Notes: generated by a model not told the origin, from the sequence alone. A stretch of DNA of 62,682 nt, filler included, from Sphacelaria rigidula (GCA_964200075.2; 11 parts of 11 records of this genome joined end to end with filler, not necessarily neighbours in it); one strand, 5' to 3'. Counted from the whole stretch's first letter, positions 16,077 through 49,000 are shown. Numbers and translations: made by a program.

Positions 16077-17178
16077 GTGAGGGCATGTCATGTTTTCCAC
16101 CTAGGGAAGCGCCACCGTGGGGTCTTTTGGGTTTTAGCTGAGTACTGCAGAAAAGGAAAATTAAAGCGTCTTAAAAAGAGAAGAACGCGTCAATACCTGG
16201 TTTTTCCGTGGCAGTTCCCAAGCCTGGCGTTGTCGGAAGGGGTGTACGGTAAGCACCAAATACACCTACCAAGCTTCAGGTGTGCACCCACAAGTTCCAC
16301 AGATCGAAACGCTCACACCACGTTGTGAGACCTTGATATATTTGTCAAACCTTGAGCCATTGATGTCGATGTACTCGGCACCAACAACATCTGGCTGCAA
16401 CAAGGGCATCGAAATAACTACTGATGAGAAGGTTTGTTGAGATCAAACCCAAAACCCTGCATCACCTGTATAAAAATATATATGTAGATACACACAAAAC
16501 CTTCACTCTGTTTCGTAGACGGATGGACTCTGATAAATGCTGTTATTCCACATATATACCACCTGACATTCTACGGAATAAGTGCCGGTAAAACGCAAAA
16601 TGCAAGATACCACCAGCATCGAGCGTCCCCGCCACCCCGCCTGACAGGCGTCGGCGCTGTGTCCATGCCCATCTTGCGTTCTCGGGAGGACAGCCGACGA
16701 GAAGGCGCGCCTTTGCTGCGTAGCACCTACAAGGCAAGTCGCTCAACAATGATAGCACAAAGCGGGGAAGGGGGGAGGAAAAAAAAATAGGGGCAGTTGG
16801 CCGGCATCGCATGGGAAACATGGACCCAGAAACGGAGACTCGGCTGAACCATCTCCGATTTTGCTTCTATATCGTGTTCGTCTCGGGTACCTCTATCATG
16901 AGGATGATGGCTACGCCTGGATCATGGCTCCTGGGGGGGGGGGGGGGGCGGCCCCCGTGGTTGGTTCGCTTACCAGGTTCGACAGTGCTCCATCGAGCGT
17001 TTCAAAGCGGTGACCCTGGCGGGGNNNNNNNNNNNNNNNNNNNNNNNNNNNNNNNNNNNNNNNNNNNNTTAATTAATTAANNNNNNNNNNNNNNNNNNNN
17101 NNNNNNNNNNNNNNNNNNNNNNNNTGGTCCCCCACCGTAGTACTAGCCTGGCCCGACGCTGCCGACAGAGCGGACGGG

Positions 17179-18331
17179 ATGTGGTACAAAAAGGATGGGT
17201 ACACCAACGTCACCAACAAGACGTGCGAGTCCGAAGGTTGCTTGAAACACCCAAGCTTCGGGCTCGTACGGGGCAAGCCTCTGTCGTGTGGCTCACACAA
17301 AAAAGATGGCTTCACGGAAGTCACCAAGAAGATGTGTGAGTCCGATGGTTGCTTGAAACCAAGTTTCGGGCTCGTACATGGTAAGCCTCTGTCGTGTGGC
17401 GGACACAAAAAGGATGGATATATTGACGTCATCAGCAAGCCGTGTGAGTCCCAGGGTTGTTTCAAACGATCACGTTTCGGGCTCGTACGGGGCAAACCTC
17501 TGTCGTGTAGTGAGCACAAAAAGGGTGGCTACGTGGAGGCTCGGAATAAGACATGCGAGTTCGACGGTTGTTTACTAATACCATCTTTCGGGACTCAGCG
17601 GGGGTAAGATTCTCGCATTTTCTTCTCACAAGAAGGACAATTATGTCAACGTGCGACACCGAAGGTGTCAATCGTCAGCATGTATCTTGTTGCCGATGAT
17701 CGAGAGGGGCTGTGGAGACCTCAAAGTCGAAGACGTGCTCCTCTGCGGGCACTGTGTCCGTAGCCAGCACCCTGATCTGGTGAAGACGTTCAAAGTGAGG
17801 ACCGAGCATTTCATCTTGGCCGAGCTGCAAAGGCGCATGCCGGAGTTAGAAGACAATTTCCTCTCGTGGGACTGTCCGTTACCATGTGCGATATCGACCG
17901 AAAGAGCGGATATGTTGTGGCAGATTGGATCAACTTTGCTGCACATTGAGGTGGACGAGACGGCGACTCACGAGGACGACCGGAACCGCCTCATGCGCCT
18001 CCTGGCGGGAACGGATGCCGTAGATCACATCGTAGTCAGGATACACACGCACGGGTACGAAAATTACAAGCCTTGTGTCACCAGAAGTCAGATTAACGGG
18101 GAGTGGGTGGTGGCCTGCCGGAAGAAGGAGTTTGATCGTAGGATGGATATCGTCGTGCCTGAGATTCGAAGGTTGTTGGCGGCGGGCGAGTCTGTCGTGA
18201 AGGTCCTGTTTTTGAACCATCAAGCTCGCTTGCGCTTCTTACGTTTCTGCACCGGCTTCTGTACGCCTCTATCCAAACGCACAGTGGTTTGCGCACAGGC
18301 ATCCGCCCTCCTATTAAAAAAACTGTTATAG
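17179..18331 (+). pseudogene. EsV-1-7 cysteine-rich repeat protein fused to a PD-(D/E)xK-type endonuclease; one frameshift, 5' end missing
   Basis: About 4.5 repeats of KKDGY..V..K.CES.GC.K.PSFGLV.GKPLSC..H (EsV-1-7 motif). Removing one G from GGGGG at 17600-17604 continues the repeat (GKILAFSSHKKDNYVNVRHRRC) into ORF 17651-18331, which carries RADMLW..LLHIEVDETATH..VVRI. Confidence 0.8.
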
Positions 18332-18735
18332 TCGGTACCGTCGGTGTGGACTCGAACGTGTGTAAATCTGGTTTGCCGAAGGGTCATTTGCGAGTCAAGC
18401 GTTTTAATTAAATCAAGGTTTTTGATCTGCGCTCCTCCCGCTTTCTTCCAACTGTTTTTGCGCCACCCCGAAACCCACTTGGTCATGGAATTGACAAGAA
18501 GCATCGAGTCTGTGTGTATGTGCAGCACGCGCTGACGATCGGGATCAATGATATCAGCCTGCTCCCCGGCTTTGATTGCTGCCAAAAACTCTGCTCGATT
18601 CGACGTCCTTGGCGAAAGTGGGTCAAGGAAGAACGCCTGGTCCTCGAATTCTGCGTCGGGCCAGACAGTAGCAGCACAAGCCTTGCGGAGTTGGGGGATG
18701 CATGACCCGTCCGTAAAAACCACTAAGTCCGCCAT
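18220..18735 (-). CDS. rnhA: Ribonuclease HI
   Basis: All catalytic motifs are present: VFTDGSC, SNRAEFLA, IHTDS, W..GW..N.WKK, IKNLDL, HVRVHT, NRRAD. Intronless, with a basic C-tail (KRKKRKRA). Confidence 0.92.
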   Translation of the reverse strand: MADLVVFTDGSCIPQLRKACAATVWPDAEFEDQAFFLDPLSPRTSNRAEFLAAIKAGEQADIIDPDRQRVLHIHTDSMLLVNSMTKWVSGWRKNSWKKAGGAQIKNLDLIKTLDSQMTLRQTRFTHVRVHTDGTDYNSFFNRRADACAQTTVRLDRGVQKPVQKRKKRKRA

Positions 18736-18817
18736 TTGACAGGTGTAGCGGGCGCGCTATTACACAATACCTTTATTATTATTGCCAACACAGTTCCGAT
18801 AACAAATCGAACAAAAA

Positions 18818-19192
18818 TCATCCACATAGGTTACTAAACATTGTCTTCATTTCCCCGAACGTCTTGTGTACGTGTTCCTCGTACGACAAACTTTGGGGAA
18901 CGGGGTGAGTGTACGTAAAAGTCGCACAGGAGGGAAAGGGTGGGTCTCCAGTGCCGAAATGTAGGACGAATACTTTACTCCCCTCTTCTAGAGCTCCACC
19001 TACCGCCACCCAAGTGTAGCAAGACTCCGTTGATACATCAAAAACAAAAAATCTTCTACCGCCTCCGTCCATCATCGCACTACAATCATCGTTGATGTTG
19101 ACCCTCTTGTTTCCTTTGTCGGAAGAGATAACACACAGCCAGTTCTTCTCCTCGTACAGATTCTCGACCATGCTTTCCAGGGTAACGTCCAT
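18818..19192 (-). CDS. Hypothetical protein (124 aa)
   Basis: ATG-initiated intronless ORF with globular composition. It fills the space between neighbouring genes and has AT-rich flanks. Confidence 0.6.
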   Translation of the reverse strand: MDVTLESMVENLYEEKNWLCVISSDKGNKRVNINDDCSAMMDGGGRRFFVFDVSTESCYTWVAVGGALEEGSKVFVLHFGTGDPPFPSCATFTYTHPVPQSLSYEEHVHKTFGEMKTMFSNLCG

Positions 19193-19323
19193 GTTCCATC
19201 GTAAAAGATTTGGATTAAATGAAGGTAGTGGACTCTGGGGTCGATTGGTATGACAAAGTTTAAGCTTTTCTTTAGGGTTGTTTGCTCATGAATTTAATAA
19301 TATAACCAAAACGCAACACCACC

Positions 19324-20516
19324 ATGGCTTGCCACACTTGCAGCAACCAGAATCTCGGCATCTTCGAAGGCATTGTGCTGACTCTGGTCTGTACGTCGTG
19401 CGCATCGGCTGAGGTCACCGACGAGAATCACCCCATCGTCTGCTTCTCAAAGGCCAGGGCTCTGTTTCCGCTGGTACCGCCGAAGCGCGTGCACCAACTG
19501 CGTTCGACTCCGCGCAGAAATCCGCACTACAAAAATGGCTCTCACATGCGTATGTACTCATTGGCCGAGCTGCAGATCCTAACCCAGCACGTGGAGCAAG
19601 AGCTGGCGGTCAAGACCGCTCTACTGAAACAAAAGCGGCAGACGCGCCTCGAAAGAATGGTTCGCGTGCACAAGATAAGCCCTGTGGCACCCATCCATCG
19701 CGCTCTGTTCGACCACATCTTTGGGGATTATCTGTGCGCTACCACGACCCCTAAGAGGACGCTAAAGCAACTCAAGTACAGGTTTTCGGCACACGACATT
19801 TCGGTACGCCTGTGCGCCATCGACCCCGTCTGCGCCATGAACTACATGGAGAACAGGGGCATCACCGCTTTCGTCTTGGACGATTTGCGACAAGGCTTCG
19901 AGTACTCTCTGTTTCTCTCCTCGCGCGTGTTTCGGCTAGAGGGATTGTCCATCGCGCGGTACATCTGTCCTACACAACTGACGGAACTAAAAACGGACCA
20001 CTAAAAGAAATTCCTGCAAGCGTCAATCGCCTCAGGAAGAACGCGCCGAGGATGCTGCGCATGTCTCTAAGGGGTCTGGGATTCGACAGCACTGAGATTG
20101 AGCGTATGATAGGCTGCTCGCCGACAAGGGTACGGCGATGCTTCAAGTATGCTCACGACCCGGAAACGGTCGCGACCAAGATTTCAGAGTTTTGGACAAC
20201 CAGGGAAGATCGCAAGCACAGGCGACAGATTCTCGAGGCAGCCATGAATAAAAAAGGGCTTGAGATACGCGATGATAGTGTGTTTTGCCATGACTTCATC
20301 TGCGGGTTGGTTGACGTCGACCTGGATGAGATCGTGGGCATTCAGTACATCACACGCGAGCTGTTTGATACCGGTGGCTCGCGGTTTTGGAGCGAGTATC
20401 ACCACGATTGCGAGTCCACTTTTAGGCAGGCGTTGCTCGAGAACGGAAACACGGTTGATAAATCCATCAAAATTGCGCTCAGGAGGTGCTCCTCGCGCCG
20501 ACGTTGGTTATATTAA
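19324..20516 (+). pseudogene. Virus-type protein with N-terminal CxxC pairs, an XPA-C-like motif and a GLEIRDDS..C motif; single frameshift
   Basis: ORF 19324-20004 (CHTC..CTSC; RRNPHYKNGSHMRMYSLAEL) joins ORF 19812-20516 (RRQILEAAMNKKGLEIRDDSVFCHDFI) if one A is added to AAAAA at 19989-19993, giving ~397 aa. Confidence 0.65.
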
Positions 20517-20566
20517 TTGTACACTTCGGGAATTGATAACACCCTCGCACATCACAGTCCACCACC

Positions 20567-21442
20567 ATGCTCCGCGACATCCTCAGCCTCGGACCGACTT
20601 CGCTCATCTGTGAGTACGACGGTGGCTGCAACTACTCATACCTGGGTACTCTTTCGAGAAGTGTTCGCGCAACATGGGCTCTCTCGACAACGACTGCGCT
20701 AAGCTGTGTCACGACGTCAACTGCACGGTTGGCCGAGCTTCCCACCGGTCCGTTTCGAACCAAGTGCCTCATACAGGGACTCGTACACGCCGTGGACGCA
20801 CAGGAATGGGACATTGTCCAGTGGATTGTGCCTCGGCTTCCAAAAAAATACGCCCTGTACACCGACAAGTTATCTTCCGCCGTTTTGGAGACGGGCGTAG
20901 TGTCTGCCATCAAGTACGCCATTTCGATCACAGAGACCAAGACCGCGCGGCCCATCTTCAGGGTGGCCCCGGTGAACGCCGTGTGCAAATACCACAGCGA
21001 CGCCGCAAAGCATTTGTGCACACGCTTCGCCGACAGTACGCTACGGAAAAATGTTGCACTGGCGGCTTGTTTGGAGGGGAATACCGCGCTCATTCAATGG
21101 TGTGCTGAAACCATGCACGCTTTTCCCACAGAGTGTGTAAGGGCACTGGCTTATAAGGGTAACGTCGATGCGCTAGAATGGTTGAGAGCAAATAGTAAAG
21201 CATCGGACCTCATAAGTGACCAGTTAGTGCTGTACGCCGCCCTGGGTGGGCATGTACAAGCTTTGGACTGGGTCTTGGACAATAACCCTGGCATTATGTT
21301 TGATGCGGAGGAAGTGTGTCTCATGGTGTGCACGAAGGGAATGCTGAATGTACTCAAGCACTTGGTTGTCATGAGAGGGTTTCGGTTGAAAATGGCAGCC
21401 TGTACTCGGTTTGCCAAGAGAGGGTCGGGTGTTGCTGGTTAG
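20567..21442 (+). CDS. Ankyrin-repeat-like protein of the giant-virus type
   Basis: Degenerate repeats AACLEGNTALIQWC, LAYKGNVDALEWLR, AALGGHVQALDWVL and VCTKGMLNVLKHL; intronless, 291 aa. Confidence 0.8.
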   Translation: MLRDILSLGPTSLICEYDGGCNYSYLGTLSRSVRATWALSTTTALSCVTTSTARLAELPTGPFRTKCLIQGLVHAVDAQEWDIVQWIVPRLPKKYALYTDKLSSAVLETGVVSAIKYAISITETKTARPIFRVAPVNAVCKYHSDAAKHLCTRFADSTLRKNVALAACLEGNTALIQWCAETMHAFPTECVRALAYKGNVDALEWLRANSKASDLISDQLVLYAALGGHVQALDWVLDNNPGIMFDAEEVCLMVCTKGMLNVLKHLVVMRGFRLKMAACTRFAKRGSGVAG

Positions 21443-21524
21443 TTGACTACGCGCGATACATGAGTTCTACTCAAAGGAGACTTCACCTTTTTTAGGGCAG
21501 ACGCCGGCTCTTCTCTCCATCACG

Positions 21525-21675
21525 AGACACACCTTCTCCCGCACAATACGCCCGGCTCCTTCTCTCGCACAAACCACCCCTCCCTTCCCCAAACCCGTCT
21601 CGAGGTCCACTCCACACACCCTTGCCACTGGCTCCTTCTCTCGCACAAAACCACCCCAAACCCGTCTCGAGGTTT
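21525..21675. repeat. Short imperfect direct repeats
   Basis: CCTTCTC(T/C)CGCACAA x3 and CCCCAAACCCGTCTCGAGGT x2. Confidence 0.8.
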
Positions 21676-22229
21676 TGGTGCATGCGTGACAGTCCCGTGG
21701 AAGAGTCATATTCTGCGTTTTGTGGTCTTCCATTGTGCGAGCACAATAAGTCCACAGTTCCGTAGCTTTCAGTGACAAGACAGACAACATGTGATACCTT
21801 TCAGCGAGAGCTTAGCTGACCACCAGATAGCACGTGGCGAACAATGAAAGAAGTACTCGTGCCCACTCTCTTCATTTTGACAGAACACTTTACCCGTCCA
21901 ACCTGGAGACCATTGTAACCCCGCGCACAGATTACCTCGGTATGCGGCAAGCCATCGCGGAAGAGCACAGACTTGGCAGAGCGAGCTGGGTGGAGAAACG
22001 GAGGAGGCGGGAGGGAGGTAGCACGCGAGGTCGATGCGATTACAGTGCTGTTTGACGGGATGTGGCTGAATCACGGGGTTGGTCGAGTTGAGCTGTGCGG
22101 GTGAACACGACGTGAGCAAGGGCCGACCTAGTCGCTGTTGGCCCTATGCGGATATGCGGCAAACATTCGAGCATGAGCAGATGCGTTATCGCACGTGTAG
22201 ACACACGATCAATATCTCAATCTGAGGTA

Positions 22230-22732
22230 GCCCACAAATCGATCATCGGCAAAAAATGTCAGCTTGTGGTGTAAACCTGCCAACTCGCCCACATATCGAT
22301 CATCGGCAAAAAACATCAGCTTGTGGTGTAAACCTGCCAACTCGCCCACAAATCGATCATCGGCAAAAAAGGCAGCTTGTGGTGCAAACTGCCAACTCGC
22401 CCACATATCGATCATCGGCAAAAAAAGGCAGCTCGTGGGGCACAGCCGCCATATTTTGCCCACATATCGATCATCGGCACAAAATGTCAGCTCGTGGGGC
22501 AAACATACCAAATCGCCCACATATCGATCATCGGCAAAAAACATCAGCTTGTGGTGTTAACTGCCAAATCGCCCACATATCGATCATCGGCAAAAAACAT
22601 CAGCTTGTGAGGCCAAGCTGCCAAATCGCCCACAAATCGATCATCGGCACAAAAAGGCAGCTTGTGGTGCAAACCTACCAACTCGCCCACATATCGATCA
22701 TCGGCAAAAAACATCAGCTTGTGAGGCCAAGC
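22230..22732. repeat. 55-59-bp tandem array, at least 9 units, running off the contig end
   Basis: GCCCACA(T/A)ATCGATCATCGGCA(A/C)AAAA..CAGCT(T/C)GTG.. starting at 22230, 22287, 22344, 22399, 22458, 22515, 22571, 22628 and 22685. Confidence 0.95.
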
Positions 22733-35992: not shown

Positions 35993-37141
35993 CTAGATAT
36001 GAAACTCTTGCAAGCGCACGATCATCGCAGCCACACCACGATGCCCGGCGTCGCGCATGTGCGCGCATATCATCAGACGTACCTGCACAAAACGCTTCGG
36101 CCACGCACATGCACACGAAACAGACCTGCATTGTCCAAAATAGCAGTACCAACGTCCGACTCGAAAAATTGCACATCCGCATCTTCGGCCCCCAAGGTCT
36201 TTTCGTTGCGCTTGGCGGACAACAGATTCGGATAACATCGAGTCATCAGGTTCACACGGACCATACACAGCCACAACGCGCACAGGCAAAGCCGGAATAT
36301 TTCCCCAACGCGAAAGCAAGTCACCCCACGCGTTACAGTCACCTAGAGTGTGGCAAATCGAGTAATGATACTGGCCAAGAATGACTTTCCAACCCTCCAG
36401 ACGTTGTGCCAATGCCTTCGACACAGACGTAACGCACGCTTCCGGGTTGAAAACATACACGAGATTTCCGTGATCCATGAAAATGTGCACGCCATCCCAG
36501 AAAAGATACTTCAAACGACGAAAAGTGTTCACGACAGCGAAACCTTCCTTGTCAAATGTGGCCCAACGCACCTGCGAACCCTTGAAATTACCACTGAGGA
36601 AAGCCAGCGGTTCATGCATCATATCCTCGACCGGCAAGCGTCTTTGCATTTCAACTTCAGGCACCTGCGTGACAAAACTACCCCAATGGCACTCAGATAC
36701 ATCCGGAAACATCAACACCTGACAATCAGGGCGAGGATGGAACAGCATCACGGGATGAGCCACCAGATCTTTCGCTGCCGCCCACGCCGGCAGCCTGCCC
36801 TCCGTCCACGATGCAGTCTTCTTCGGAACCGCCATATCCGGACTGGACCACCCCGCCTGCGAGTTCCGCAACACCAACCCGAGCGCCAAAAGAGGCGCCG
36901 TGCACAACTTCAACCAACTCGACTTCCCCGGATCGTACCGCCGCGGCTTCGTCTTTACCATGGACGCTCCAGCTTTTAGCTGAACACGCATGGGCTCCAC
37001 GCGCGCAGGGGGATCACCCCGCAGCGCACGACGAAATGCGTTGCGCGGAGATGCAATATGCCGCGCAGGCGCTCCGCTTTTGAGACGCTGAGGCCTTTCA
37101 TCACGGCGTCCGTCACGCTCTCCTCCAGCGCGACCTTCCAA
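35993..37141 (-). pseudogene. Gypsy pol: RT N-terminus, RNase H and start of the integrase zinc finger; RT core deleted
   Basis: WSSPDMAVPKK jumps directly to W..AWAAAKDLVAH, then MFPDVS, PLAFLSG, DKEGFAVV, IFMDHGNL, NAWGDLLSR and AH...GHRG. No YxDD motif. Confidence 0.85.
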
Positions 37142-37222
37142 CGGACTCCTCTTCCGCCGGAACCATAAGTACCTTCGGGCCGCGCTCTACCAAGCGTTCC
37201 ACCGCCGCATCGCGCTCCTCGG

Positions 37223-46004: not shown

Positions 46005-49000
46005 TCTCGCAGACTGCCAACACGTGGCGGCAAGGCAGCCCCCATCTGAGCACATATCCGCAGCCGCACTCCATCTGGACTGGCTGGCCCGTGGAGCCCC
46101 ACTCCAGTGTCACCTGATTTTCCATCCTGGGGTTCGTCTTCATGGCTACCGTGTACTTTCCTTCAGAAGACGTCTTCACCAACAGCCTGTATGCCGCAAT
46201 ATGGAAAGGCAACGGTGTCGTCGAATGGCGAAGATGTCATTCGTGAAAGATGGTGACAGAGGTTTGGACAAGCGAGCGGCAACCACGTAGGATATACCTC
46301 ATAATCATCGACAATAGACCACGAGATCATCATGGACGACTGCGGCACGGTCGTGGCCATCACATCTGAGCGCCGACAGCGACTACATATGTGCTACGCT
46401 GAAGTGGTTTACAGTGAAATATGCAGTGGAGTCATTTGACTTACCTTTTAGACCATGAAAGTTCGCGATCTCGGACTTCTTCCAGCCAAGGTGTGAACAC
46501 CTGACGGGTTCCCTTCTTGAGTTGTGCGGCCTCGTGCAACTTTTCCGCCACCATCTCCATCACGCCCTTGGTGAAGTCGAACACTGGCCGCTCCCGCAAC
46601 TGGACATCGCGCACAGAGGAAGAAGTGCGAACGACAGTTTTAGTTTGAAATTCATCCTAGACGCCGGTCCTCCCGATGAAAAAGATTTGAGACCGTTGCA
46701 GCTGTCTAGAAAAGATAACAGGCGCACGAAGTCGTGGCTGTTCGCTGATTACTGTGAAATACACGGTTTGCTCGTGACCTGCGCGGCCAAGGGCGTACCA
46801 CCGAAATATCAATTGTGGCAAACCGCTGGCGCTCATGTAGCCATTTCTCACGGCAACGGGGCCCCCATTTATCGGAGACCAAAATACTTGTCGACAGCTG
46901 CAAAACAACAAGACGCGATGGACGGACGGCGGGCGGTCACCACATTGACCCCACGCAGTATTTTTACTCGGATTCTTACCACGGCTCCAATCATGTTGTT
47001 GCAGCTCTCCACCATGTTTGTCGTTATCTGGTCCCACACTCGATTGTCACGGCGTGTGTGGTACGCCCATAACGTGGGGTCAATTCTCATCCACTTCTCG
47101 TATGCCTGGGGTTTGTCGGCCTTCACCTTGTCCAGGAGATACGTGCTAGACGCCTCGGTCGGGGCTCTCGCTGCGTTGAATATGTGCCCGAAGTTAGTCT
47201 GGCAAGAACAGCATCACATGCATGCGGGCGGGTATCGCGAGATGAGCAATGCATCGTGACGGGCGACAAAAGAGCATCATGTCGGCCACTATTGGAGTTG
47301 GGTTTAGGGATGCGAGGTTAATGGATGACTATGGCATAATTAATTGATTGGTTAATTCTCTCAAGGCATGCATGATCATGAGTCCCCCCCCCCCCCCCCC
47401 CCCCTCCCCCCCCCTCCCGACACACACACTCGCACATACCCGGCTTTACACGCCCGCCTCCTGCCCCAGCACCTATCCGTACATTAGCCCCACGGCATGC
47501 GAACTGATGCCACTCAATCGAACTGTATGATATCCTTGACGCACCGATCCCAGCGCCGGTGTTATGTTGTTCGCCAGATGCCGCACGCACCGCCCTTGCT
47601 CAGCCAGCGGTACCGCTGGTGGCACGCCTGCCTCGGACCCCTTGTGCCCGTCCACGAAGTACGTAGTGGATCGCTTATTCAACCACGCAGACATTTCAGG
47701 ATTTCGCTTCGCGTTGTGAATCATGTATCGATACATTTCTTGGTTTTCTTTGTGTGCCACCACCAGGCATACGATGACCACCTTGTTGTCTGCGTCTTCC
47801 ACGGTGAGCAGAGAGTAAATTCCGTTCCATATGCCCTTCAGGTAAGCGCAGTCCTTGCAGAAAGCCTGTAAATTTTCGCCCGGAGGAAGAGGAGGAGGGA
47901 ACGGTGCGCTCACATACACGTGGAAATGGCCCCCGATTGTGTTCGCAACCCCCCCTCGTATTCGATCACTTTTACGGTCAGTTGGTCATGGCACGTGGTA
48001 CCCGCGTCAGTGCACCACTGCAGGCACGGAACGTTACCGCGCGAATACCACGTATTGAGCACAAATTTGGGCAGAGTGTTGAGTTAATTCCCGAGTGATC
48101 ACCAATGCGCACTTGTTGCTCAAAGTGCTTTCCCGATATTTCGACCGAGAATTAGAGTTCGCATTTAACGCAACCTAAAATTTGGTAGAGTATTTGAGGT
48201 CGTAACCAACGTACACAAGAGTTAGGTGGTCTGTTTTAGCTCGCATACATTCTGCCTCAAAATCGGGTGAATGTTTTTAGGTCGTGCCTTATCTACCCTG
48301 TTTTAGTACAGTGTTGATATCATACCCACGTGATCCTCTATGAAGAGATTTTGCTGAGAGTGCTCAGTCAGTATTCAGGTACAGTATGTGAGGTGGTACC
48401 CAGTCCACGTGAAACTAGGGTCTAGCATTTGAGGCCATACAACATGTACCCGAACCATATGTAGAAGTCTTGGGTACAGCAGATACCCGTGTCTTCATCC
48501 AAGTGTTGGAATTTACTTACCGTACCCGACCTGCACTAGGTATGCCTTGTATACGGTACAGAAAAACGCACCCCCCGGCGGCGGGCGTTCCTGCGTATTG
48601 CGGGTCAAGGTCTGAAAGTCACGCCTTCGGTCTCTCGGGCACTGGCGCATTATCTACGACACCGAAAAATACAGCTGAATCACCCCTTGAGAACTTTTCA
48701 CGGCCACGTTCACCGACTGCCCAAGCATGACGAAGAGGCGTTTGAAGCACCCTTCGGTGTCCCACTGCGCGAGCCGGGTAGGTAGAGCAGACGACGACGG
48801 GGGCGACATTTCAGGGTCTGGCGCACAACGACTACATTTTGGTTGGAGCGCATGACACGGGCGACTCCACTTGGTGTCACCGTGCTCGGATTATATTCTA
48901 ACGCAGAGAGTTCGCGCAGACATATCGAGGACGGAGATATTTCATCATGGGCGTATGGGGACGCCGCCGGAAATGGGGCGGTGAGGGGAAACGCACGCGC

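Follow-up and report, generated by a model that had tools for sequence, protein, structure and literature searches.

The stretch of DNA analyzed here (the window, positions 1–62682) comes from Sphacelaria rigidula (GCA_964200075.2) and consists of 11 separate contigs of 5,607–5,608 bp, joined by N44-TTAATTAATTAA-N44 spacers, so that no feature should be followed from one piece into the next; the pieces are size-sorted contigs of a fragmented assembly. The subject of this report, positions 17125–22732, is exactly one whole contig of 5,608 bp. It carries five genes, labeled g1 to g5 from left to right, among them an array of EsV-1-7 repeats joined to a nuclease-like domain (g1) and a counterpart of a giant-virus open reading frame (ORF; g4), and we interpret it as a probable fragment of an endogenous viral element (EVE).

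ORFs were listed with the standard code, and nine ORFs of the contig were scanned against Pfam. The five ORF-genes lie within 4.3 kb (17179–21442), about one gene per 0.86 kb, and every ORF is collinear with full-length relatives, which leaves no introns; the ORF listing and this collinearity bear out the description of five intronless genes in ~4.3 kb given by a first-pass annotation made from the sequence itself. The divergent g3/g4 pair that it placed at 19192/19324 is likewise found in the ORF listing, and the convergent overlap that it reported is real: g1 and g2 both occupy 18220–18331, because g1 extends 37 residues beyond the end point of all six compared homologues. Its description of the spacers as short and AT-rich holds for two of the three, with G+C fractions of 0.39 and 0.37, and fails for the third (0.50), which falls within the range of the genes (0.48–0.54). 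ORFs of at least 120 aa cover 0.77 of the contig, the highest value of the 11, vs. 0.07–0.60 in the other ten; thus, the compactness of the contig exceeds the background. Three Pfam families scored above their cut-offs, EsV_1_7_cys (g1), RNase_H (g2), and Ank_4 (g5), and the scan assigned no family to the C-terminal part of g1, to g3, or to either part of g4. The coordinates of all features are collected in Table 1.

Table 1. Features of the contig at 17125–22732, in window coordinates (GC, G+C fraction; runs X1, X3, and X4 are described in the text)
Feature	Position	Strand	Basis or remark
Left end of the contig, within a dispersed repeat of high copy number	17125..17184	.	GC 0.68; source of a fortuitous ATG at 17179
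g1, first part, about four EsV-1-7 Cys-rich units	17185..17604	+	PF19114, E 1.1e-27; 111-bp period, 3.2-3.5 copies
G5 run, g1 frame shifts by one base	17600..17604	+	Downstream homology in next frame; no gap in X1, X3, X4
g1, second part	17603..18331	+	Last degenerate Cys unit, predicted Vsr-like domain (ERADMLW ... LLHIEVDETATHEDD), 37-aa tail over the end of g2
g2, 171-aa RNase H of the cellular type, stand-alone, basic C-terminal tail	18220..18735	-	PF00075, E 1.9e-23
g3, 124-aa protein of a very small family	18818..19192	-	Purifying selection; intact
Divergent g3-g4 spacer, AT-rich	19193..19323	.	GC 0.37; ~940 bp in L017
g4, first part (226 aa, ended by a premature stop), Cys pairs at the N-terminus plus a helical region	19324..20004	+	68% identity to L001 10001-10669
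A5 run, g4 frame shifts by one base	19989..19993	+	Relatives unbroken through ...ELKNGPL...; no gap in X1, X3, X4
g4, second part, another frame	19994..20516	+	71% identity to L001 10664-11188
g5, 291 aa, degenerate ankyrin repeats in C-terminal third	20567..21442	+	Ank_4
Non-coding stretch with two short direct repeats	21443..22229	.	No match to any sequence compared
57-bp tandem array, 8.7 copies, reaching the contig end	22230..22732	.	Tandem-repeat search; variant units

The strongest link to a virus comes from g4. An alignment-based scan of IMG/VR with this gene returned one locus (L001), 68% identical at E 6e-104, within a giant-virus record of 335,593 bp, and tblastx comparison reads both parts of g4 there in one frame, as an intact 399-aa ORF that is 68–71% identical to both halves. 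A 12.8-kb metagenome contig (L016), syntenic with L001 at 90–96% protein identity, also holds an intact 399-aa copy. Among 157 candidates, 15 relatives of g4 were found at E ≤ 1e-3, the names including Ectocarpus sp. 8 and Pylaiella littoralis, and g4 is equally close to the viral record (68%) and to the Ectocarpus sp. 8 protein (69%). Single-protein scans of IMG/VR with g4 and g1 returned nothing; since the alignment-based scan with g4 succeeded where its single-protein scan had failed, the single-protein scans are insensitive, and the IMG/VR scans in general use few peptide patterns, so that distant relatives are missed. To judge by these alignments, g4 is the counterpart of a conserved 399-aa phaeovirus ORF and, as such, the decisive marker on the contig.

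The model of g4 is all-helical, with a predicted local distance difference test score (pLDDT) of 62. Searches for a function of g4 gave no BFVD match at E ≤ 1e-3 and nothing from sequence profiles against the PDB, and Pfam searches at E ≤ 5 on nine members of the family found no consistent family. A likeness to XPA/Rad14, suggested by two Cys pairs and NPHY..MRMY in the N-terminal part, was not supported: XPA/RAD14 rows appear for g4 in BFVD only at ranks 45 and 49, and a profile of the N-terminal part found no XPA chain at E ≤ 10.

In g1, about five EsV-1-7 units are fused with a conserved domain of ~175 aa; the gene reads on the plus strand from 17179 to 17607 and then in the next frame onward to 18331. 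It matches PF19114 (EsV_1_7_cys) over three stretches with 96 bits against a cut-off of 25, and its 37-aa unit has the pattern C-x4-C-x15-C-x2-H, with the consensus CxxxGCxxxPxFGLxxxKPLxCxxHKxxGYxxVxxKx over 26 units. We found 13 relatives, nine of them with PF19114 and the named ones from Ectocarpus and Pylaiella assemblies. Homology to these relatives begins only at 17185, in mid-unit, and aligns from residue 79 or 113 of the relative P0017; because the array starts mid-unit, g1 is cut off at its 5' end, with its first units and N-terminus missing. The truncation site coincides with the junction of the left-end repeat in the read sets. At the other end, all six compared relatives end at ...VKVMFLNH, give or take about two residues, and the contig copy runs on for 37 residues: g1 has lost its normal stop.

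The C-terminal domain of g1 carries a conserved motif, D ... E-x-D-E-x3-H-E-D-D, on the first two strands of the core, with D103, E116, D118, and H123, the putative catalytic residues, kept in at least 90% of 10 family members; we take this motif to resemble those of Vsr and of EDxHD enzymes. The AlphaFold model of the domain (mean pLDDT 55.1) has the core order alpha-beta-beta-beta-alpha-beta, as in restriction-endonuclease-like proteins. Structure comparison by VIA-align with 48,161 chains placed the Vsr endonuclease 1cw0_A on top, with 107 aligned residues, a root-mean-square deviation of 3.3, and a Z of 7.6, which for this tool lies in the common range and here belongs to a model of pLDDT 55; it was followed by I-Bth0305I, McrC, an endonuclease-like Neisseria protein (23% identity), BpuSI, Can2, and Bax1, and seven of the ten best rows bear nuclease titles. 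Among viral structures, a BFVD search with the domain gave 10 matches at E ≤ 1e-3, led by EsV-1-115 (E 1e-5). All six named matches are giant-virus proteins and three of these six are titled "Endonuclease"; those other than EsV-1-115 bear the title "Endonuclease" or "C2H2-type domain-containing protein" (pithovirus and cedratvirus relatives), together with one Heterosigma akashiwo virus protein, and a DUF559 protein ranks lower in the same search. Pfam holds no nuclease family for the domain even at E ≤ 10, the g1 sequence profile matched no PDB chain, and Foldseek comparison of the model with the PDB returned nothing at E ≤ 1e-3. By fold and motif, the domain is predicted to be a Vsr-like PD-(D/E)XK endonuclease, and g1 as a whole may be a nuclease directed to particular sequences, possibly a selfish one of the homing type.

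Two of the five genes are broken by single-base shifts in homopolymers, G5 at 17600–17604 in g1 and A5 at 19989–19993 in g4, at just the sites that the first-pass annotation had named. The g1 array reads ...FGTQRG and then a stop, and the next frame, ...KILAFSSHKKDNYVNV..., supplies the remainder of the EsV-1-7 unit; relatives of g1 of 409–420 aa cross the G5 site in a single unbroken frame. Likewise, the first frame of g4 ends in ...TELKTDH and a stop, another frame holds ...NGPLKEIPASVNRLRKNAPRMLR, and relatives of 382–396 aa have ...ELKNGPLSQIPASV... in one piece. The contigs of four public runs were compared with the stretch; X1 and X3 are two samples of organism A from one study, and X4 is an algae metagenome from a separate study. 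The X1 contig (5,129 bp, covering 17160–22288) and the X3 contig (5,085 bp, covering 17160–22244) show no differences and no gaps, and the X4 contig (5,108 bp) shows five substitutions and no gaps. The X4 substitutions lie at 17250, 17251, 18298, 18631, and 21152, positions at which X1 and X3 are identical to the contig. These five differences imply that at least two haplotypes or strains, ~0.1% apart, carry the same two frame breaks, and the lack of gaps in contigs of three read sets from two studies means that the breaks are not errors of this assembly; both belong to the DNA itself, in two sources or more. Of the two origins that had been proposed for them, early decay therefore stands and sequencing error falls away.

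The remaining genes, g2, g3, and g5, are intact. The RNase_H match of g2 reaches 83.6 bits vs. a cut-off of 25.8, no reverse transcriptase is attached, and the catalytic D-E-D-D residues (D9, E49, D76, and D145) are invariant in all 12 aligned rows. In a quick tree with support from the Shimodaira–Hasegawa-like approximate likelihood ratio test only, the 12 close relatives of g2 (66–88% identity) form a clade (support 99) that is sister, with support 97, to a group of three including the contig L002 of a giant-virus metagenome-assembled genome in IMG/VR. The C-terminus of g2 (18223–18258) is a basic tail, KPVQKRKKRKRA, present in three of the 12 aligned rows (the contig copy and two relatives), which resembles a nuclear localization signal. 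For g3, only five matches at E ≤ 1e-3, two of them strong, were found among 1.84 billion representatives, and it has no Pfam family and no usable Atlas match; its weak matches to repeat proteins (P0085–P0087) were set aside, as these have no family in common with g3. In g5, Ank_4 matches residues 193–236 only, with 26.1 bits (cut-off 22.7), and the Atlas clusters nearest to g5 are all ankyrin families, from Chlorophyta and Nucleocytoviricota.

Part of this gene set is conserved elsewhere. An independent metagenome contig of 2,352 bp (L017) contains g2, g3, and the beginning of g4, arranged and oriented as here, with protein identities of 89% (g2), 80% (g3), and 87% (g4) and nucleotide identities of 83–91%. 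The ratio of nonsynonymous to synonymous substitutions (dN/dS, Nei–Gojobori) between the two contigs is 0.20 for g2, 0.29 for g3, and 0.15 for the N-terminus of g4, and that of g4 vs. L001 is 0.13–0.15. These low values indicate that purifying selection acted on g2 to g4, the orphan g3 included, through most of the period after the copies diverged; the lesions of the contig copy are presumably more recent than that selection. The spacers of L017 are longer than their counterparts in the contig, at ~345 bp between g2 and g3 (397–740) and ~940 bp between g3 and g4 (1113–2052), vs. 82 bp (18736–18817) and 131 bp (19193–19323). Within the first of these, L017 469–627 resembles L001 6033–6191 (57% over 53 aa), and the same L001 stretch matches L016 9905–10033; a small element repeated in phaeovirus genomes is one possible reading.

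Both ends of the contig lie in repeats, which are unrelated to each other. The GC-rich ~35–63 bp at the left end (17125–17187) occur once in the 62,682-base window and recur in very many contigs of all four runs compared. Bases 17125–17159 are common to many contigs that diverge at 17159/17160 (46 in X1, 41 in X3, and 43 in X4), and a further set of public-run contigs matches up to 17187 before diverging; a transposable element of very high abundance probably ends in this repeat. Over the four runs, summed contig depth is 24,729–410,502 in the bin 17125–17311 vs. 3–65.5 over the remaining contig. At the right end, the summed depth of the tandem array is 40.6–318.3 in X1, X3, and X4 vs. 14–65.5 over the unique part in the same runs, and the array probably broke the assembly there; its core has no exact match in IMG/VR. 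The first-pass statement that the contig has none of the host dispersed repeats holds against the other ten contigs, with which blastn gave no match (nine of these ten have repeats in common), and does not hold for the high-copy 35–63 bp on the left; the 57-bp array in the right 500 bp also qualifies it. After g5, at 21528–21673, two families of direct repeats of 27 nt and 20 nt lie at spacings of 67–76 bp, and neither a function nor a relative was found for them. The contig contains no Rfam family, no tRNA, and no inverted repeat of at least 18 nt. Among 20 long ORFs scanned on the other contigs, two encode a retrotransposon RNase H-like domain (RT_RNaseH, 35996–37186, minus strand, E 3e-11) and a MULE transposase domain (47476–47985, minus strand, E 1e-6), as fits a repeat-rich eukaryotic host.

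Taken together, these data suggest that the contig is probably an eroding fragment of a phaeovirus-like (Nucleocytoviricota) EVE in the nuclear DNA of a brown alga or a close relative. Phaeoviruses insert into the genomes of their hosts, and most brown-algal EVEs are fragments with frameshifts, partial genes, and transposon activity (PMC11890097; PMC12993054); intact EVEs have about one intronless gene per kb (PMC11890097, Table 1), and the genes reported from such elements include ankyrin genes and RNase H, the latter in Phaeovirus-like EVEs from a different brown alga (McKeown et al. 2025, PMC11890097). Giant-virus relatives were found for g4 (L001 and L016), for the g1 domain (EsV-1-115), and, within its sister group, for the g2 clade. 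The giant-virus or phaeovirus origin put forward by the first-pass annotation thus gains support, mainly from the viral relatives of g4 (68% to the IMG/VR record) and of the g1 domain (best viral structure EsV-1-115), evidence that goes beyond its sequence-only view; the EsV-1-7, RNase H, and ankyrin genes that it had offered as viral markers are indeed present and are weak by themselves, being a large host family or widespread. A viral origin is also proposed for g2, g3, and g5, and integration into host DNA is suggested because the truncated g1 adjoins a repeat of host-scale abundance. In this scenario, a latent genome of the phaeovirus type would have integrated as part of its infection cycle and then have been inherited with the host; the integrated genome would later have been broken up, with one break inside g1 against a high-copy host repeat, and the remaining genes would now be accumulating lesions, namely the 5' truncation, frame break, and lost stop of g1 and the frame break of g4.

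Several observations weigh against an EVE. Only one of the five genes, g4, has a sequence-level counterpart in a viral record, and no other gene of the contig lies within 10 kb on either side of that counterpart in L001, so that there is no synteny. Scans of IMG/VR found nothing for g1 (single-protein and alignment-based), for g3 (alignment-based), or for g5 (single-protein), and the structural match of g1 has the common-range score and low-confidence model given above. Those relatives of g1 and g4 that carry names belong to Ectocarpus and Pylaiella assemblies, and EsV-1-7 genes form a large family in the hosts themselves (10.1101/2024.02.19.579948). Capsid, polB, packaging ATPase, D5, VLTF3, and integrase families are all missing from the Pfam scan of the nine ORFs, the first three as the first-pass annotation had noticed; on a contig of only 5.6 kb, this absence says little about the whole element. 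Furthermore, the evidence for a host junction is a left-end repeat with a depth thousands of times higher than that of the contig, which has no unique host gene and ends in repeats on both sides.

The depth data also bear on whether the contig might instead be part of a complete, competent latent provirus, or free virus DNA in the sample, which we regard as unlikely. Complete EVEs that can be reactivated exist in Ectocarpus (PMC13236599), and such a state would agree with the intact g2, g3, and g5, with the long-term constraint implied by dN/dS of 0.15–0.29 vs. L017, and with contig ends that lie in repeats and leave the neighbors unseen. However, the frame breaks in two genes recur in three read sets from two studies, g1 lacks its 5' end and its normal stop (three lesions in g1 and one in g4), and a depth thousands of times higher is impossible for a virus-internal repeat. 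The ratio of contig depth to repeat depth is 0.8–1.6e-4, constant within about twofold over the four runs, whereas absolute depths differ more than twentyfold; summed contig depths are not copy numbers, and this near-constancy is a weak hint, more in line with a copy fixed in a chromosome than with free virus whose titer varies. The broken genes also tell against a host gene cluster of older viral ancestry that the alga has domesticated, an unlikely reading in our estimate: breaks in two of the five genes are a poor fit to genes retained for host use, the contig has no introns and a virus-like spacing, and the identity of g4 to the viral record (68%) is on a par with that to the Ectocarpus sp. 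8 protein (69%). On the other hand, EsV-1-7 genes often form tandem arrays in the large host family (10.1101/2024.02.19.579948), the Ectocarpus and Pylaiella assemblies have annotated relatives of g1 and g4, and the contig shows both purifying selection and an identical sequence in two samples of organism A. No RNA run is among the listed runs that hold the stretch, a blank that is no evidence on expression.

The first-pass annotation had named a large cargo-carrying transposon as its alternative, and cargo of such an element, or of another non-viral mobile element, is very unlikely to be what the contig represents. A nuclease that carries an array for DNA binding might serve mobility, an Ectocarpus Tc1/mariner transposase has acquired an EsV-1-7 domain (PMC12477816), and both contig ends are repeats; however, these end repeats are mutually unrelated, inverted repeats of at least 18 nt are absent, the Pfam scan of the nine ORFs found no transposase, integrase, or reverse-transcriptase family, and g4 and the g1 domain have giant-virus relatives. 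The alternative thus finds no support. Finally, a bacterial or other non-algal contaminant, or an assembly artifact, is close to refuted: one run that holds the stretch is labeled an algae metagenome, but all named relatives are brown algal or giant-virus proteins, three runs labeled organism A contain the stretch in full or nearly so, and contigs of independent runs reproduce it base for base.

As an EVE fragment, the contig adds one more case to a known phenomenon; insertions of phaeovirus DNA are an established and common feature of brown algal genomes, and one small decaying fragment changes little. Its value lies elsewhere. It is a dated snapshot of erosion, with a 5' truncation against a repeat, two frame breaks, a lost stop, and past purifying selection, and it exposes a gene family that fuses the EsV-1-7 motif with a predicted nuclease-fold domain outside Pfam. 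EsV-1-7 is among the largest gene-family expansions of brown algae, and the fusion makes direct DNA binding by EsV-1-7 arrays a testable idea. We suggest, tentatively and with more doubt than confidence, that the g1 family reveals what EsV-1-7 units do: they could be modular, CCCH zinc-finger-like units of nucleic-acid recognition that aim a Vsr-type endonuclease, as part of a homing-endonuclease-like selfish gene spreading among phaeoviruses and their insertions, and the host family, including IMMEDIATE UPRIGHT (IMM), could descend from the DNA-binding arm of that nuclease. The capture of an EsV-1-7 domain by the Tc1/mariner transposase (PMC12477816) would fit the motif as a DNA binder. We did not find a fusion of an EsV-1-7 array with a nuclease fold in print, the paper that first described the family (Macaisne et al. 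2017) not being covered; the one paper found to mention both EsV-1-7 and an endonuclease does so in unrelated contexts, and the word "nuclease" is absent from the available text of two large brown-alga papers that treat the EsV-1-7 family, including 10.64898/2026.04.27.720984.

Comparison with known systems relates g1 to three groups of proteins. The Vsr, DUF559, and EDxHD-type (I-Bth0305I) PD-(D/E)XK endonucleases supply the best solved structures for its predicted domain, 1cw0_A, 3r3p_B (Z 6.3), and 3hrl_A (Z 6.1, 23% identity); the model compared is of low confidence (pLDDT 55), with a Z below 8 and no PDB match by sequence profile. The giant-virus proteins that combine zinc fingers with an endonuclease (pithovirus, cedratvirus, and marseillevirus relatives, and EsV-1-115) have the same predicted C-terminal fold (Foldseek E 1e-5 to 1e-3, probability 0.99–1.00) and, like g1, a Cys/His repeat region before the endonuclease domain; however, the repeats of g1 are an EsV-1-7 array rather than C2H2 fingers, and identity is only 12–20%. 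In relation to the EsV-1-7 family itself, that is, IMM and hundreds of host paralogues, g1 has the same repeats and an extra conserved C-terminal domain outside Pfam, whereas, according to a 2026 preprint (10.64898/2026.04.27.720984), no Ectocarpus EsV-1-7 gene carries another Pfam domain.

At the level of the whole contig, the closest comparison is with phaeovirus EVEs such as the small fragments EVE 40-2 and EVE 94 of Porterinema fluviatile (PMC11890097). The contig differs from phaeovirus EVEs in that it has no core gene, has one gene with a viral counterpart, which is non-syntenic, and ends in repeats. It resembles the Porterinema fragments in its intronless genes on both strands, in its density of about one gene per kb, in its ankyrin and ribonuclease H genes, in its frame breaks and partial genes, and in the transposable elements that are implicated in fragmentation.

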